Source: Felixounavirus LF110P1. Taken from it: DNA of 64,000 nt. The notes beneath the pieces are model-generated. The model was not told the DNA's origin. It was given only the letters and a program-made list of their open reading frames with translations, and made no database searches. Of this stretch, positions 11,295 through 63,736 are shown in pieces. The translations under genes and the position numbers were made by a program. Location: the sequence record OZ035744.1; one strand, given 5' to 3'. Every line of letters starts with the position of its first letter. The stretch's first letter is position 1.

Positions 11295-19313
<8,019 letters not shown>

Positions 19314-26207: not shown

Positions 26208-26507
26208 TTAATCTGCCAGCCTTAAATTGAAATTAACACCAAATTTTTCACATACCCCCAACATATACTCAAGGGAAACATTCCCAGTGAGGTGGATTAT
26301 GTTGGATACACGAGCCTGAGAGATACCACAAATTTTAGCAACTTGCTCTTGAGAAAGACCTCTGGATTTAATCTCTCTCTTAAAACGATGTGCAACGAAG
26401 TCTCTCATTTCGTCTACATCCATTGGACAAATATAACTCTCCATTTCAGCCTCTCTATCAGCCTCCCAATCATCTTGTGGGGCATAAGGGTCAAAAACCT
26501 CATTCAT
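26208..26507 (-). CDS. Helix-turn-helix (XRE-like) DNA-binding protein; start at 26507 or 26537
   Basis: C-terminal LSQEQVAKICGISQARVSNIIH helix-turn-helix signature; acidic N-terminal region. Confidence 0.5.
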   Translation of the reverse strand: MNEVFDPYAPQDDWEADREAEMESYICPMDVDEMRDFVAHRFKREIKSRGLSQEQVAKICGISQARVSNIIHLTGNVSLEYMLGVCEKFGVNFNLRLAD

Positions 26508-27097: not shown

Positions 27098-27222
27098 AAT
27101 GACCTCAAAGTTATATTAAATTTTGTATTACATTGAGTATAAAAATAAGCTATAACACCTGACTTGTCAACAGATTTTATAGCTTATTTGGCAGATTTTT
27201 TATAAGGCTACTGCCATCCTTC

Positions 27223-27460
27223 CATACATTACCTAACCAAGCCTAACATCACACAACCAGACCGAGCCGCACCCCGCCTTATTAAAAGACCCTCTTAAAG
27301 ACCTTTTAAAAAGGTAAGTCTCATTTTAATGTAGTTGAGACTAACTACCCATACCATACCTTACACCGCCGTACCACACCGAACATCACCAAACCATACC
27401 AAGCCAGAGCCTACTGTACCATACCGAACATCACTTAAAAACCCTCTTAGAAGACTCTTA
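27223..27460. repeat. Two degenerate tandem copies of a C/A-rich, G-poor element with a 19-bp direct repeat
   Basis: GTACCACACCGAACATCAC (27371-27389) and GTACCATACCGAACATCAC (27416-27434); TTAAAAGACCCTCTTAAAGACC (27282-27303) and TTAAAAACCCTCTTAGAAGACT (27435-27456). Confidence 0.5.
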
Positions 27461-27521
27461 AGTGATGCTGGTGAGTACCCGTTGGTTTATGCTGCTCAGT
27501 ATACTCACCAAATTTTCTATG

Positions 27522-27710
27522 TCAACAACTTTCTAATAAAGTTTTATGAAGACTTTGCTTAACAACCCGCCTCACATGCCTATGCTCTTTCTTAATAAAG
27601 AGTGACCTCTTCTTGACAGAGCGCCTATTCTTGTAAGTATTACTAGGATACTTATCATGAACCGGACAACAACTCCCCGGATTTGTAAACTTGATAATCT
27701 CTCTTTTCAC
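27522..27710 (-). CDS. Small basic protein (possible; coupled to ligase stop)
   Basis: 62 aa, Lys/Arg-rich; ATG overlaps the ligase stop by 1 nt. Confidence 0.3.
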   Translation of the reverse strand: MKREIIKFTNPGSCCPVHDKYPSNTYKNRRSVKKRSLFIKKEHRHVRRVVKQSLHKTLLESC

Positions 27711-29848: not shown

Positions 29849-29899
29849 ATAACCTCCTATATCAGATATTGTATAAGGTACTCTTCCATGAGCACCTTG

Positions 29900-30463
29900 T
29901 CAAGATAGTTTTGCAAACTCTCCGTGGAGTTTCACAGCAGCTTCACAGTAAGCTTTATGGGCTTCTTCAGGGGTGTCAAACATACCAAGATGATAGTTTT
30001 TACCTTGTAAACGAATCATTGCTCTAAATCTTACACCTATCTTCTGCACACCTTTTGGCAACCCAGATAGGGACTTTCTTGACCGATTGCAAGAGTTTTG
30101 TGAAGCTGTACAAACCCTTAAATTCAAGTACCTATTGTCCCAACCATCACCATTCTTATGGTCAACCTGTAAGGTTTTATCAGGCAGGTATCCATCCACA
30201 TATAGTATTGCTAGACGGTTAGCTTGGTAGCCTTTACCATCAAGCAATAACTGAACAGACTTGTGACCGTCTGTGTTTATCCTATAATTTCCTGCCTTTT
30301 TACCTCCAAAACGAGAGTTGAAGTTCTTATTGCCTCGTGATACCGGCTCTCTAAACTTCCAAGTAAAGACCCCTGTTTCGGGGTCGTAGTCCAATAGCTC
30401 CTTAAGACGAATTTCTGTAATCATTTCAACACCATCAATGTACTTCCAACCAGCTCTTACCAA
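29900..30463 (-). mobile_element. Free-standing HNH homing endonuclease (NUMOD4-like N-terminus, HNH core, AP2-like DNA-binding C-terminus)
   Basis: LKELLDYDPETGVFTWK (NUMOD4-like); QVDHKNGDGWDNRYLNLRVCTASQNSCNR (HNH); GVRFRAMIRLQGKNYHLGMFDTPEEAHKAY (AP2-like); start overlaps the 3' end of the polymerase gene by 29 nt. Confidence 0.7.
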
Positions 30464-33164
30464 CCTTACCTGTGCCAGTTACAAGTGTCTCACTCTTCAA
30501 ACCTAAATTCTTAGATGCCTGACCATACATCCAGTCAGTTATGGCTTTAACTTCTTGAGTCATACTTTCTGGGCATTCCCAACTGTTTTCATCGTGGTAT
30601 GCCAGCAAAAGCCTAGCACCAATTGCTGGTTTTCGTCCATTTAATTTTGTCAGTCCTTCTTCACATGCTCTTCTACAAGCAAGGTTAATTGCCTCATTTT
30701 GAATCTGAGCCTCCGAACCCATAAGCAAATAATTCAATAACTTATGTGGAGATTTGCACCACAACCAAGCTCCAGCAACTTTTACAAAGCCCCCTTTAGA
30801 GATTGCAGCAGTCTTACCAAATACCTCTTCAAGTGCCTTTTTAGTTGCTTTGTAGTCAGCTTCCAAGTCATCTAGCAGCTTTTTAATTTTAGGCAAACGA
30901 ATAAAGTAAGTCTGTTTAGTCAGCGCACCTTCCTGAGTAGTTGCAGCCTTAATCGTCTTAGCAAACTTCTCATCACCTGCACCGAACAGCAGTGCATAGA
31001 TACCATTCTTAGCTTTCTTACGACCCTTGCTAATCTCATGAAGAAGATTCTCATCCTGAGTAGCTCGACAAGTCAAGATGTCCTGCTCATCGTTCAAGTT
31101 AAAGTAAATACTGTTCAGTGTATGTGCATCAGTCCCTGAATAGACAACGTACAGGTCATTCTCAGAGTCATAGCGAAGGTACTTATCAATCTCTGGGTTG
31201 AGGTACTCATCAAAGTGTTTACAGTAATAGCGTCCATCTTCTTGACGAATGAACTCAATTTCTTCTTTACCTTGCGTTACCGCTTTGGTGAAGTCTTTAT
31301 CACCCATAAAGTTACAAAGAAGAACTAGCTGGGCTGAGTTCATATCTACAGAGACAACGTTAGTACCTTCCTCACAAATCCACACTGCCCTCATTGGTTC
31401 CCCATAGACAGCAGCACCAGATGGTACGTTTACAATACCATACTGTGTCATACGTCCAGTTGAAGTACCAAACACCATTGCACCAGCACTAAGGCGACCA
31501 TCAGGACGAATCTGGTTCAACCAACCTTTTTCATCATCCTTTGAGTTCTCAATAGTTCTGCGTCGGTGCATCAAAGTGTAGTATTTAGCAATCTTCTGTC
31601 CAAGCTCACCTTCAATCGTATCGTAAGATGATTCAGTAAGTTTTGGTGAAGTACGGATTAAGCAAGGCTCAAGCAAATCTGTGTACTTCTTCACAGACCA
31701 GTTATGCTCAATGTACTGGACGCCTTCGTGTTCAACATAACTCAAACCACACCGCTCAACCATTTCCTGCCACTTAGGATGCTTTGTAATCATCTTTTTA
31801 TTGTCTTTGAAACGACAAACTTTGACAGGGCGACCATCAGAGTCTTTCTTGTAGTTCCAGTCATCTGGAATCCAACCAACTGATTTCAAGTAGTCTTTAA
31901 CAACTGCTACCTGAGTCATACGAGAAACTTCAAACTCAATTGGTGTATATGGTGCATCAATCAAACCTGTGTAGCGACTTGACTCAAGTTCAAAGTGGTT
32001 AACAACGTGGCTGTTATAGTACTTCACAGTTTTGACTGTTTTTACTGGCTTCCAGTCTTTGCATTTCTTGCCAATCTTTGCGTTCAACTCATTGCAAATT
32101 GCACGAGCATCCTTCATTGCTACAAAGCCTTCCTTGTACTCTTCACCAGTTACAGTGTTGGTTGGTGTATAGCAATTCCTTTTTTCAATGTTAAAAATCT
32201 TTGTAGTTGGCTTACCAAATGGTTTGATTTCGTATGTCTGCATCTCGCCATTACGTACCTGCTGACGATACTTTGTCTTAGGGTACTTGGTAATTCTTTT
32301 CAGTCCATCTGCATGACCAAATGTTTCAACATACTCATTCCAAGCTTTTGCAAACTCTTCTCCAGTGACTTTACCTTTGGTCTTAATAGTTGGAGGTAGA
32401 TGTGGTTCAACCTCTGAAGCAAGCTCATTAGTCAACTTGTCAAGTTCCTTTACATGGAACTCCATAAGCTCTTTATCAGCTTTCCAACCATTGATAGCTT
32501 GTTGACTCATCCAGAAAGATGTTTCTTTAGCTCGCATGTAGGTTTCATAAGTGTCTATGCCACACTTCTTAAGCTTGAGATACTCATTATCAAGTGCCCG
32601 TTTAGTTTTGGCGTTAATACGGATATCTTCTACAACACGAGTGAAGATTTCTGCATTCCACACACCCCAATGTTCAATCTCTGGTTTACGAACACCGACA
32701 CGAGCACCCCATGCAGCCAAACCATGAGCACCTTTATAACCCTTTGGAGTTGGTCTATCCATCCACTGAACACGAGACTGGATAAGAGAATCCTGAAAGA
32801 AATTACTCCACGGTTTACACTTTGGATTATCAAAGTTCCATAAATCGGGTGCAATGTGATTGAAAACCCACCAGTCATAACCAAGACCATTATGAATGCA
32901 AAGACGTTTTGCCTTTAACGCAAACTCAATACCTTCACGTAAGCCACCCTTAATGTACTTGGTATACTTGTGACCGAGGATAGGCTCATCTGTAAAGACC
33001 CATACAGGTGGCTCTTCATCGTCAGATTTATAGTCTGCGAAAGCCATTACGTGCACTTTAGTGAACTCAAGGAGTAAACCATCAGTTTCTGTATCACCAA
33101 CTAAATGTAAGTTTTTAAAATCTACGTTTTCCATTTTTACTCCCTCTAAAATCATTAACCTCAT
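30435..33164 (-). CDS. DNA polymerase, family A, with 3'-5' exonuclease domain
   Basis: Exo I motif VGDTETDG; VVSVDMNSAQLVLL (motif A-like), KNGIYALLFGAG (motif B-like), LLAYHDENSWE (motif C HDE). Confidence 0.85.
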   Translation of the reverse strand: MRLMILEGVKMENVDFKNLHLVGDTETDGLLLEFTKVHVMAFADYKSDDEEPPVWVFTDEPILGHKYTKYIKGGLREGIEFALKAKRLCIHNGLGYDWWVFNHIAPDLWNFDNPKCKPWSNFFQDSLIQSRVQWMDRPTPKGYKGAHGLAAWGARVGVRKPEIEHWGVWNAEIFTRVVEDIRINAKTKRALDNEYLKLKKCGIDTYETYMRAKETSFWMSQQAINGWKADKELMEFHVKELDKLTNELASEVEPHLPPTIKTKGKVTGEEFAKAWNEYVETFGHADGLKRITKYPKTKYRQQVRNGEMQTYEIKPFGKPTTKIFNIEKRNCYTPTNTVTGEEYKEGFVAMKDARAICNELNAKIGKKCKDWKPVKTVKTVKYYNSHVVNHFELESSRYTGLIDAPYTPIEFEVSRMTQVAVVKDYLKSVGWIPDDWNYKKDSDGRPVKVCRFKDNKKMITKHPKWQEMVERCGLSYVEHEGVQYIEHNWSVKKYTDLLEPCLIRTSPKLTESSYDTIEGELGQKIAKYYTLMHRRRTIENSKDDEKGWLNQIRPDGRLSAGAMVFGTSTGRMTQYGIVNVPSGAAVYGEPMRAVWICEEGTNVVSVDMNSAQLVLLCNFMGDKDFTKAVTQGKEEIEFIRQEDGRYYCKHFDEYLNPEIDKYLRYDSENDLYVVYSGTDAHTLNSIYFNLNDEQDILTCRATQDENLLHEISKGRKKAKNGIYALLFGAGDEKFAKTIKAATTQEGALTKQTYFIRLPKIKKLLDDLEADYKATKKALEEVFGKTAAISKGGFVKVAGAWLWCKSPHKLLNYLLMGSEAQIQNEAINLACRRACEEGLTKLNGRKPAIGARLLLAYHDENSWECPESMTQEVKAITDWMYGQASKNLGLKSETLVTGTGKVGKSWLEVH

Positions 33165-33194
33165 ACATTACTGCAAAAAATTATAAAAAGCAAG

Positions 33195-33223
33195 TTGACA
33201 ATGCACTTGACAAGGTGTTAATC
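33195..33223 (+). promoter_or_regulatory. Candidate sigma70-like promoter(s) in the divergent control region (two overlapping TTGACA boxes)
   Basis: TTGACA at 33195-33200 and 33207-33212; weak -10 TTAATC/TAATCT at 33218-33224; AT-rich region follows. Confidence 0.35.
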
Positions 33224-33330
33224 TTTGCGAAGTGGGTTTTTACTTAAAAGGTTACTTAACAGTTTAACTATACAGATACTTTAAATCTCTTAAAAGATTA
33301 TTTAATAGCTTTTAAAAAGCTTTAAAGTAT

Positions 33331-33347
33331 AACGTATAGAATACGTT
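33331..33347. promoter_or_regulatory. Palindromic candidate operator AACGTAT-aga-ATACGTT
   Basis: 7-bp inverted arms with 3-bp spacer in the AT-rich region between the polymerase and the first plus-strand gene. Confidence 0.3.
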
Positions 33348-33391
33348 AAGATAAAAGATTAAAACTTAATAGTTACTTAAAAGAGGCTTAC

Positions 33392-33814
33392 ATGCAGAAA
33401 ATGTTTGTTCACCCAGACATAGCTGACTTTGTTAGAGCTTTGCAGAAGTTGGAAGAACTTGACATTGCTGCTCAACGGGAATATGCTCACCATCACAGGA
33501 GAATGGTTGATATACAACATGAAATAGAGTTGTCTGAAAACTATGAAGATGACTTAAAATGCTCTGTATTTGAGCATATGAAAGATGTTGCTACAGCAAG
33601 ACGTAAAGCTAAAGACACAGTTGCTTTACTAGATTCTCTTAAAAAGAGGTTGCAAAGTGGTACAGACCTGTGTAATCTAGCGTCACTGATTAACGATGTT
33701 GAAACTTCTTGGGATAGGCACTATTATCCACGTTCTGAAAAGACACTTGACTTTTCTTCATCAGAAAACTTAAAATGTTCTAGAAAGAAACTTAACCAAC
33801 TGAGAGAGAAATAA
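33392..33814 (+). CDS. Hypothetical early protein
   Basis: 140 aa ORF; AAGAGG RBS upstream. Confidence 0.4.
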   Translation: MQKMFVHPDIADFVRALQKLEELDIAAQREYAHHHRRMVDIQHEIELSENYEDDLKCSVFEHMKDVATARRKAKDTVALLDSLKKRLQSGTDLCNLASLINDVETSWDRHYYPRSEKTLDFSSSENLKCSRKKLNQLREK

Positions 33815-33815
33815 T

Positions 33816-34628
33816 ATGAATATCAATGTGGAACAGATGCTTGAAGAGAAAGGTGTTGATGAAGCATTCTTAATCAATGCCGTAGAAAGCATGGCTATGA
33901 TTCTTCGTGGAAATAACTACACAGAACAGTTTATGCCTGCAAGCTACAACTTACCTGAAGACAAGTCTGATAGTAGTGCTTTTGCAGAGCAGGTTAATAT
34001 GATGCTGTGTGACAAAACGCTTGCTTTAGCATCTATCGTTGTAGGTGTCGATGCTCTTGCAGAGTTCATTTTTTATGAGATGCAGAAAAATGACTATATT
34101 GCCATGACATCTGAAGAAAAAGACTCGCTGCTGCTCTTAGATAATGATGAGCTAGTTGGCCTGTTAATTTCTTCAACGAGTGCTGTTATGGCTGCTCTTG
34201 AGAAGCGTATGAATGAGAAGTTGTCACGGTATGAAAAACTTGATTGGGGCGTAGAAGAATTAAACCCACGAATCAAAGAGATTATCCAGCAAACCAAAGC
34301 TTCTTTGGAAGAAGCTGTGAAAGATGATTATGTAGCTGGCATAGAACCACTACAGGTGAAAGTTGCATTGATGATGCCAGCTATCTCTACGATGATGAAT
34401 ATCGTTGCATTAATCCAGCTTTCACAGATGATGGGTACAACCATCGAGTTCATTGAGAGTATGACTGGTGGTGTCAGTATGCAAGCAATCAATGATGTTT
34501 TGGTGAGCATTGGAGCTTCAATCATTGAAGAGAAACTGCGCATTAACTTTGGTGACGATTTTGTGAAGCAAATCGCAGCTATGGCTGAAAAAGAACACTC
34601 ACAGATTACCACTGAACAACTGCACTGA
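33816..34628 (+). CDS. Hypothetical early protein
   Basis: 270 aa helical protein; coupled to the upstream ORF. Confidence 0.4.
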   Translation: MNINVEQMLEEKGVDEAFLINAVESMAMILRGNNYTEQFMPASYNLPEDKSDSSAFAEQVNMMLCDKTLALASIVVGVDALAEFIFYEMQKNDYIAMTSEEKDSLLLLDNDELVGLLISSTSAVMAALEKRMNEKLSRYEKLDWGVEELNPRIKEIIQQTKASLEEAVKDDYVAGIEPLQVKVALMMPAISTMMNIVALIQLSQMMGTTIEFIESMTGGVSMQAINDVLVSIGASIIEEKLRINFGDDFVKQIAAMAEKEHSQITTEQLH

Positions 34629-48474: not shown

Positions 48475-48483
48475 AACTTGACA

Positions 48484-48525
48484 AGGTGATGTGGGTCTTG
48501 ATAGGCTTACATCACCTTTTTTTTT
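48484..48525 (+). terminator. Strong rho-independent terminator after nrdD
   Basis: AGGTGATGT ... ACATCACCT followed by a run of nine T. Confidence 0.7.
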
Positions 48526-48631
48526 ATTGGATGTTAGATATGGCAGAGAGTATTATTGGGTTGTTCATAGGTTCTGTCTTACTAGGGTTCTTTTTAGGAC
48601 TCTCTTATTGTGAATTGAAAGGTAAGTTAAA

Positions 48632-57411: not shown

Positions 57412-57441
57412 TTGACAAGGGGCTTCAAAGCCCCTTAGAAT
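57412..57441 (+). promoter_or_regulatory. TTGACA-18-TAGAAT promoter-like element with a palindromic spacer
   Basis: TTGACA 57412-57417; spacer AGGGGCTTCAAAGCCCCT is a perfect hairpin; TAGAAT 57436-57441; lies between rIIA and rIIB. Confidence 0.4.
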
Positions 57442-63440: not shown

Positions 63441-63646
63441 TGCTTTACAGTCGTGAATTGATGGTTACAACTAACGTTAACACAAAGGTAAAACGTTTTT
63501 ACATGCAAATTTGTGGCGTATGGTCTAGAATATCAGAAGCTGACTATTGCAACTATGTAGAAACAGCTATAAACTCTAATTGCTACCTTACAAGAAATAC
63601 TAAGAATTTTACAAGGCAAACAGCGATTTACTATTACGATAAATAA
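63425..63646 (+). CDS. Hypothetical small protein
   Basis: 73 aa, overlapping start. Confidence 0.3.
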   Translation: MEREIMLYSRELMVTTNVNTKVKRFYMQICGVWSRISEADYCNYVETAINSNCYLTRNTKNFTRQTAIYYYDK

Positions 63647-63736
63647 AAGTACTTTACATGGGGCTTATAGTTCGATAAAGTAAGCCCCAGATAAAGAGCT
63701 TTACCAAATTAACCCTTAAACTAGGAGATTCAAAAA

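Follow-up and report, generated by a model that had tools for sequence, protein, structure and literature searches.

Felix O1-type phages are widely used in Salmonella typing, biocontrol and therapy. The closest described counterpart of the region analyzed here is the intergenic region between genes 96 and 97 of Felix O1, which is the same locus with ~97% identity. Our region lies in a 64,000-nucleotide stretch of DNA from Felixounavirus LF110P1 (OZ035744.1; hereafter, the window), flanked by the gene of a T7-like DNA polymerase on the minus strand and that of a 140-residue gp97 homologue (PHROG 4039) on the plus strand. Whichard et al. (2010) took early transcription to start from divergent promoters between genes 96 and 97, although they found no promoter-like or consensus sequence there (PMC3185647). 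In the reverse transcription-polymerase chain reaction (RT-PCR) experiments on Felix O1, ORF96 (the polymerase) and the rightward ORF101 and ORF105 were transcribed within 5 minutes (PMC3185647). The repeats, hairpin, paralogous module and low duplex stability described below are not part of the 2010 paper. Two GenBank records, MZ726791 (ASO1A) and KR014248 (AYO145A), carry computed promoters at the site, which are pattern matches with 2–3 mismatches, and the ASO1A record places its rightward promoter on the first of two TTGACA boxes.

We conclude that the region probably controls early divergent transcription in a Felix O1-type phage and is read by the host σ70 RNA polymerase. The rightward promoter, P(+), would comprise an A-tract, TTGACA (33195–33200), an 18-nt spacer and TGtTAATCT, and would start near 33231 to give a ~160-nt leader ahead of an operon encoding gp97, gp98, a deoxynucleoside monophosphate (dNMP) kinase and a primase/helicase. 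The polymerase operon would be served by a weaker promoter, either back-to-back with P(+) (candidate M2) or inside the leader (candidate M3). The leader would act as a conserved cis-regulatory array of three CTTnAnAG pairs with 11–12 bp spacing, single octamers and two dyads, and early expression would be tuned through these putative sites by a sequence-specific factor that acts on the DNA or the leader RNA.

Conservation and the predicted divergent promoters

The window represents a Felix O1-like myovirus, a member of Felixounavirus with 98–99% identity to many Felix O1-like phages; a query with 32600–34000 matched 305 phage records, 214 of which were 95–99% identical. For the analysis of conservation, the window was compared with five divergent Suspvirus and Mooglevirus relatives. 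The intergenic region is 81–86% identical to these relatives overall, with 86–98% for the block 33185–33239 and 81–86% for the AT-rich part (33240–33391), compared to 54–64% for the third codon positions in the genes of the polymerase and gp97. Since identities of 81–98% contrast with 54–64% at synonymous positions, the alignment points clearly to purifying selection on the region. The sole stretch that varies as much as neutral sites is 33155–33184, and the intergenic length of 257 bp is constant in the relatives compared.

As judged from sequence, P(+) is the best-supported element of the region, a putative σ70-type rightward promoter. Its TTGACA is invariant in Felixounavirus, Suspvirus, Mooglevirus, Kolesnikvirus (Erwinia phages) and a Hafnia phage, and a TAnnnT hexamer is located 17–18 nt 3′ of it in each of these five lineages (TAATGT at the −10 position in the Hafnia phage, TACATT in the Erwinia phages). 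The TTGACA-N18-TGtTAATCT arrangement has the top σ70-type matrix score within the region (10.6 bits), and its start site is predicted near 33231. Other predicted intergenic promoters of the phage also have a perfect TTGACA. Three σ70-like matches of 10.9–12.5 bits are located within the gp97 coding sequence (33459–33487, 33699–33727 and 33747–33776); the strongest of them, TTGACA-N17-TATGCT, is probably due to chance because it is not conserved at the protein level in Mooglevirus.

The second TTGACA box lies in the spacer of P(+). The two other exact copies of its 12-mer, at 29893 (minus strand) and 48477 (plus strand), are promoter-like sites. We rejected this box as a −35 element, as no usable −10 element is present 16–19 nt downstream, either here or in the paralogous module described below; its role may be that of an operator, or of a second or alternative contact for RNA polymerase.

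The other divergent junction of Felix O1, between genes 40 and 41 (AF320576 21437–21664, beyond the window), has the same design. It comprises an A-tract, the UP-element position being A-rich here as well; TTGACA-AAGCAC-TTGACAAGGT; TAGGCT as the −10 element; ACTTAAAAGGTT; octamers (CTTAGAAG, two copies of CTTAAAAG, CTTTTAAG and CTTATAAG); an inverted repeat (AGATATC-N6-GATATCT); and a ribosome-binding site. The offset of ACTTAAAAGGTT from the second TTGACA box is 35 nt at the 96/97 junction and 36 nt at 40/41. The 22-mer TTGACAAWGCACTTGACAAGGT is present in exactly two copies in the Felix O1 genome, and the genes downstream of the two copies of the module are unrelated. Comprising a predicted promoter and the beginning of its leader, the module stands at the head of each of the two long rightward transcription units of Felix O1, which argues for a promoter or regulatory function. 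A scan of IMG/VR with a 15-base twin-box pattern proved too loose, with many unrelated contigs among the matches; several Felixounavirus contigs matched twice.

A host-recognized promoter should also exist in the leftward direction, because the polymerase gene of Felix O1 is transcribed within 5 minutes. Two candidates, M2 and M3, both fit weakly. The hexamers and 17-nt spacer of M2 keep their positions in three genera, with a −10 element of the form TAnnGT (TAATGT or TAGGGT); its −35 box is 1 bp from that of P(+), and the implied leader is ~24 nt. A Hafnia phage has TTGCAA-N17-TACTAT in an M2-like position, as read by eye. M3 is invariant in three genera and overlaps the octamer CTATACAG (33268–33275); it implies a leader of ~125 nt that would overlap the 5′ end of the rightward transcript, and the ASO1A record contains a computed promoter similar to it. 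The perfect TATAAT at 33185–33180 (minus strand) was rejected as a −10 element, as it has no −35 element at 15–19 nt and is not conserved outside Felixounavirus.

The first-pass annotation had proposed divergent promoters here, a reasonable idea that is not new, having been put forward in 2010. The rightward half of it is made plausible by the conservation of P(+) in three genera, and the leftward half did not yield a good σ70 match. It had also proposed an operator controlling a switch between the two blocks, for which we find no support, because both flanking blocks are early in Felix O1 by RT-PCR. No repressor-operator relation could be shown: the 19-bp palindrome at 33330–33348 has no second copy in the window and is located ~110 bp downstream of the P(+) core. 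A helix-turn-helix protein encoded at 26208–26537 matches Pfam HTH_3 (E = 3e-9). The gp97 homologue was rejected as a DNA-binding autoregulator: it has no Pfam match, its PHROG family is of unknown function, and only 9 homologues were found. The protein is modeled as a helical hairpin without a DNA-binding fold, with generic coiled coils as its best structural matches (predicted local distance difference test score, pLDDT, 72.5).

The left boundary of the region, previously set at 33165, was wrong. The ATG at 33164 in the mechanical list of open reading frames (ORFs) is an in-frame codon upstream of the polymerase start at 33134, which is preceded by a ribosome-binding site and is annotated as the start in Suspvirus and Mooglevirus records as well. 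The intergenic region therefore spans 33135–33391 (Table 1).

Table 1. Coordinates of features in and around the polymerase/gp97 intergenic region
Feature	Position	Strand	Sequence and remarks
Full intergenic region	33135–33391		polymerase ATG 33134 (minus), gp97-like ATG 33392 (plus); 257 bp, 26% GC
Polymerase ribosome-binding site	33140–33146	−	GAGGGAG; 5 nt upstream of ATG 33134; kept in alignment
Candidate M2, proximal leftward promoter	33165–33193	−	−35 TTGCTT (33193–33188), N17, −10 TAATGT (33170–33165)
A-tract	33185–33194	+	AAAAAGCAAG; proximal UP element position, adjoins −35; 100% identical in five divergent relatives
−35 hexamer of P(+)	33195–33200	+	TTGACA; invariant in five lineages
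Second box	33206–33217	+	CTTGACAAGGTG; inside P(+) spacer; exact 12-mer three times in window
Extended −10 of P(+)	33216–33224	+	TGtTAATCT; kept as TGnTA(A/G)TCT, spacer constant at 18 nt, three genera
Conserved element, predicted rightward transcript start	33229–33240	+	GAAGTGGGTTTT; similar TGGGGTTTT in Hafnia phage SarahDanielle
AT-rich leader, candidate DNA unwinding element	33235–33384		least stable 150-bp duplex of the window
Octamer	33243	+	CTTAAAAG
Octamer	33255	+	CTTAACAG
Octamer	33268	+	CTATACAG
Octamer	33289	+	CTTAAAAG
Octamer	33320	+	CTTTAAAG
Octamer	33365	+	CTTAATAG
Octamer	33376	+	CTTAAAAG
Octamer pair 1	33243–33262	+	CTTAAAAG-gtta-CTTAACAG
Octamer pair 2	33289–33308	+	CTTAAAAG-atta-TTTAATAG; conserved; 23-nt direct repeat of pair 1, 83% identity
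Octamer pair 3	33365–33386	+	CTTAATAG-tta-CTTAAAAG; runs into gp97 ribosome-binding site AAGAGG (33381–33386)
Candidate M3, distal leftward promoter	33267–33295	−	−35 TTTTAA (33295–33290), N17, −10 TATAGT (33272–33267)
15-bp palindrome, then palindromic octamer	33307–33327		AGCTTTTAAAAAGCT, then CTTTAAAG (33320–33327); 92–98% conserved
Hairpin/dyad	33330–33348		TAACGTAT-aga-ATACGTTA; 100% paired in 15 distinct sequences

Octamers and dyads of the AT-rich leader

The motifs noted in the first pass are, taken singly, unremarkable against chance. Both TTGACA boxes are present (33195–33200 and 33207–33212); described as overlapping, they are in fact 12 bp apart, start to start, and TTGACA occurs in the window at the chance rate (72 found, 69 expected). 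The repeated TTACTTAAAAG is likewise present (33240–33250 and 33373–33383), its first copy starting at 33240 and not at 33241, and a further copy with one mismatch is located at 33252; with at most one mismatch, 12 copies are found in the window compared to 4 expected. The near-palindrome AGCTTTTAAAAAGCT was recovered at 33307–33321, as was the palindrome AACGTAT-aga-ATACGTT at 33331–33347, whose arms extend to 8 bp at 33330–33348. When the region is shuffled with its dinucleotides kept, 13% of the shuffles contain a perfect 8-bp inverted repeat. The ensemble of motifs in the region is not a chance assembly.

The seven octamers listed in Table 1, together with TTTAATAG at 33301, make three pairs with 11–12 bp spacing. 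The pattern CTTWANAG is found 6 times on the plus strand; in 5000 dinucleotide shuffles of the region, it averaged 0.19 and never exceeded 3. At the window-wide rate, ~0.1 per strand would be expected for an equal length. Octamer positions 1, 2, 3, 5, 7 and 8 are 98–100% conserved between genera, positions 4 and 6 ~75%, and bases outside the octamers and the two palindromes ~70% (p = 2e-4). The paired layout is kept in suspviruses, moogleviruses and kolesnikviruses and is expanded in a Hafnia phage. The octamers were also considered as a genome-wide middle or late promoter motif, which we rejected because the other copies are mostly within genes or terminator A-tracts. In a by-eye comparison, with no formal scan, the consensus sequences of IHF, Fis, Lrp, DnaA and CRP did not fit convincingly.

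No compensatory changes were seen in the aligned sequences for the 15-bp palindrome (33307–33321). In the hairpin at 33330–33348, compensatory double substitutions affect two of the seven pairs (A-T to T-A and C-G to T-A), and the loop reads AGA or AAC. Such substitutions are compatible with a hairpin, either in RNA or in unwound DNA, or with half-sites of a dimeric protein that evolve together.

Several points weigh against our interpretation of the region as an early control region with a regulatory leader. P(+) ranks only ~30th in the window by matrix score, several higher matches being within genes, so that the case for it rests on position and conservation; its −10 element agrees with the consensus at only 3 of 6 positions, and the second TTGACA box has no explanation in the P(+) model. 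Neither leftward candidate is a good σ70 match, M2 scoring a weak 4.8 bits and M3 7.0 bits. The strict octamer pattern was set after inspection of the sequence; the loose form, CT-N4-AG, is not significantly enriched (7 per 170 bp, with 6 in several coding windows), and the ~11-bp phasing of the octamers is marginal (p ~0.05). No protein binding the octamers was identified, and no transcription start or RNA-seq data for Ounavirinae were found in the searched literature.

Possible origin, possible leader RNA function and genome ends

On physical grounds, the leader is also a candidate DNA unwinding element. The nearest-neighbor free energy of 33235–33384 is −1.073 kcal/mol per step, compared to a mean of −1.284 (standard deviation 0.042), which places it 5 standard deviations below the mean in stability. 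It is the least stable segment of the window at sizes of 100, 150 and 200 bp, and the homologous segment of Felix O1 (63573–63722) ranks first for instability in the whole genome at the same three sizes. The unstable segment begins ~10 bp past the −10 element of P(+). One alternative reading is an origin activated by transcription, as in oriF/oriG of T4 or the primary origin of T7; we regard it as unlikely, and it could coexist with the promoter function. The P(+) transcript would invade the unstable AT-rich segment and a persistent RNA-DNA hybrid would prime the leading strand, with the displaced strand as the loading site of the T7-like primase/helicase. A minimal T4 origin is made up of just a promoter and an AT-rich downstream unwinding element (PMC3016281), and the origin reading fits that layout by analogy, with a conserved promoter directly upstream of the least stable duplex of both the window and the Felix O1 genome. 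The region is located between the genes of the T7-like polymerase and the primase/helicase, and the genes diverge from it, so that replication forks would run co-directionally with transcription. The cumulative GC skew also has a local minimum here (~33 kb), but this minimum is fully accounted for by gene orientation; the skew tracks the coding strand throughout, and we rejected it as evidence for an origin. An unwinding element needs low stability only, yet the sequence is conserved motif by motif. The module is, moreover, duplicated at 40/41, where co-regulated promoters are the simpler explanation, although T4 has several origins. AT-rich leaders are common without origin function, and no origin mapping for this phage group was found in the searched literature.

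With respect to iteron-type origins, three bipartite units of ~20 bp can be delineated (33243–33262, 33289–33308 and 33365–33383), two of which share 83% identity over 23 nt, with irregular spacings of 46 and 76 bp between units. No iteron-type initiator was identified, the model of the adjacent gp97 having no DNA-binding fold, as noted above.

It is quite unlikely, in our estimate, that the conserved elements act instead in the 160-nt leader RNA of the gp97 operon, as a stem-loop (33330–33348) with CUUnAnAG repeats through which an RNA-binding protein or nuclease would set mRNA stability or gp97 translation. The octamers appear to be on the transcribed strand, because in the three close genera seven fit CT..A.AG on the plus strand and two on the minus strand, the latter being near-palindromic sites already included in the plus count. 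The two compensatory changes of the hairpin are of the classic kind and its loop is freely variable; the last octamer abuts or overlaps the AAGAGG ribosome-binding site. On the other hand, transcription of the leader itself is only inferred, and its global fold is not significantly more stable than that of shuffled sequences (z = −1.5; 14 of 200 shuffles at least as stable), with only two local hairpins remaining in the consensus fold. A scan of 32900–33700 against Rfam 15 gave no family match (best E ≥ 0.57, scores far under the gathering thresholds). A 1.6-kb untranslated region close to the ends of the genome holds very large numbers of related octamers in the opposite orientation, and the octamers of Erwinia phages are mostly palindromic; both observations favor recognition on DNA.

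This 1.6-kb stretch, which is outside the window (12305–13928 of Felix O1, AF320576), has no ORFs and is located at a convergent junction. It contains 61 CT-N4-AG octamers, compared to ~16 expected from the genome average, including eight copies each of CTTGTTAG and CTGTTAAG and four of CTTAAAAG; CTGTTAAG is the reverse complement of CTTAACAG of the polymerase/gp97 region. The spacings cluster at 10–12, 21–23, 31–33 and 42–44 bp (~10.7-bp multiples). The stretch is conserved across Ounavirinae, and no description of it was found in the Felix O1 genome paper. It probably flanks the genome ends or direct terminal repeats, since several deposited genomes begin or end within it and PhageTerm indicated direct terminal repeats for the Felixounavirus genomes of one genome announcement (PMC11737134). 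The polymerase/gp97 octamers look like a small outpost of this array family. A bolder proposal, which we consider speculative and rather improbable, is that the CTTnAnAG octamers (reverse complement of the type CTGTTAAG) are sites of a phage DNA-binding protein that would coat helically phased arrays, both at the two twin-TTGACA leaders and in the ~60-copy array, and that octamer array and unstable duplex together form a transcription-activated origin at polymerase/gp97. If true, one repeat family would, in Ounavirinae, connect the genome ends with early transcription and the initiation of replication.

That the region is a functionless AT-rich spacer, its motifs being low-complexity coincidences, is strongly disfavored and extremely improbable: the TTGACA count, palindrome length and loose CT-N4-AG count are singly within chance, but identity is far above that of neutral sites, conservation tracks positions within the octamer motif, the lengths of both the region and the promoter spacer are conserved, the promoter module is duplicated, and the hairpin has compensatory changes. 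An early divergent control region remains the reading that we prefer.

Neighborhood and comparison with known systems

Several features of the surrounding genome were observed in passing. The gene after gp97 (33816–34628) bears the label "minor tail protein" in PHROG 4251 as well as in many records. Pfam gives no match for it, and it belongs to an early replication operon, where it is placed between the polymerase gene and those of the dNMP kinase and primase/helicase; the label looks as if it had been propagated from record to record. In Kolesnikvirus (Erwinia and Hafnia phages), the polymerase gene is separated from the control region by an inserted HNH endonuclease gene, and in the window an HNH endonuclease gene (29900–30463) is located downstream of the polymerase gene rather than upstream. 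Within the leftward block, 424 bp (27098–27521, read on the minus strand) are without ORFs and contain two consensus-like promoters (TTGACA-N16-TATACT at 27525 and TTGACA-N17-TATTTT at 27170), degenerate G/T-rich repeats (GGTATGGT, GTTCGGTNTGGTAC), recurring GTCTT(C)TAAGAGGGT motifs, and a palindrome, ACCTTTTAAAAAGGT, similar to AGCTTTTAAAAAGCT of the polymerase/gp97 region. Promoter-like TTGACA boxes overlap terminator hairpins at 57412–57441 and 48477–48530, one with TTGACAAGGGGCTTCAAAGCCCCTTAGAAT and the other with CTTGACAAGGTGATGT...ACATCACCTT followed by nine T residues.

In the searched literature, we found no description of how the region is conserved across the subfamily, of the two copies of the twin-box module in each genome, of octamer conservation by position, of the hairpin with its compensatory changes or of the global minimum of duplex stability. 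The coordinates given here can be tested directly and cover one predicted, conserved early promoter, two candidate polymerase promoters, the conserved octamers, the hairpin and the segment that is the genome's best candidate for an unwinding element. If the octamers are a protein-binding code common to the early leaders and the terminal region, they would reveal a regulatory or organizing factor in the subfamily; otherwise, the region is simply an early promoter region of the ordinary kind, well conserved.

Three kinds of known system offer parallels. The primary origin of T7 has tandem promoters, φ1.1A and φ1.1B, upstream of an AT-rich segment. The layout predicted here, a promoter followed at once by an easily melted AT-rich segment of ~150 bp beside replication genes, is also like that of oriF and oriG of T4 (PMC3016281). 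T4, however, uses MotA-dependent middle promoters and T7 its own RNA polymerase, whereas the promoter here is predicted to be of the host σ70 type; in addition, the sequence of the T4 unwinding element is unconstrained, in contrast to the motif-by-motif conservation of the leader.

The second parallel is with PR/PRM of lambda, in that two outward units would be served from one short conserved region, with −35 elements that nearly touch if M2 is the leftward promoter. Unlike lambda, the phage is virulent, a repressor/Cro pair is not known and both sides are early; the dyads are located in the leader, and not between the promoters.

The third is with cooperatively bound repeats at helical-turn spacing, such as the Pho boxes (CTGTCAT-N4-CTGTCAT), the 11-bp repeats of R1 parC bound by ParR, the iterons of replication origins and the heptamer arrays of T7 beside its terminal repeat. 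The octamers, 11–13 bp apart in pairs, are reminiscent of these arrays; their sequence differs from all of them, and their phasing in the intergenic region is only marginally significant. Overall, the polymerase/gp97 region represents a known kind of element in a well-conserved form, and the chance that it is something more interesting is modest.

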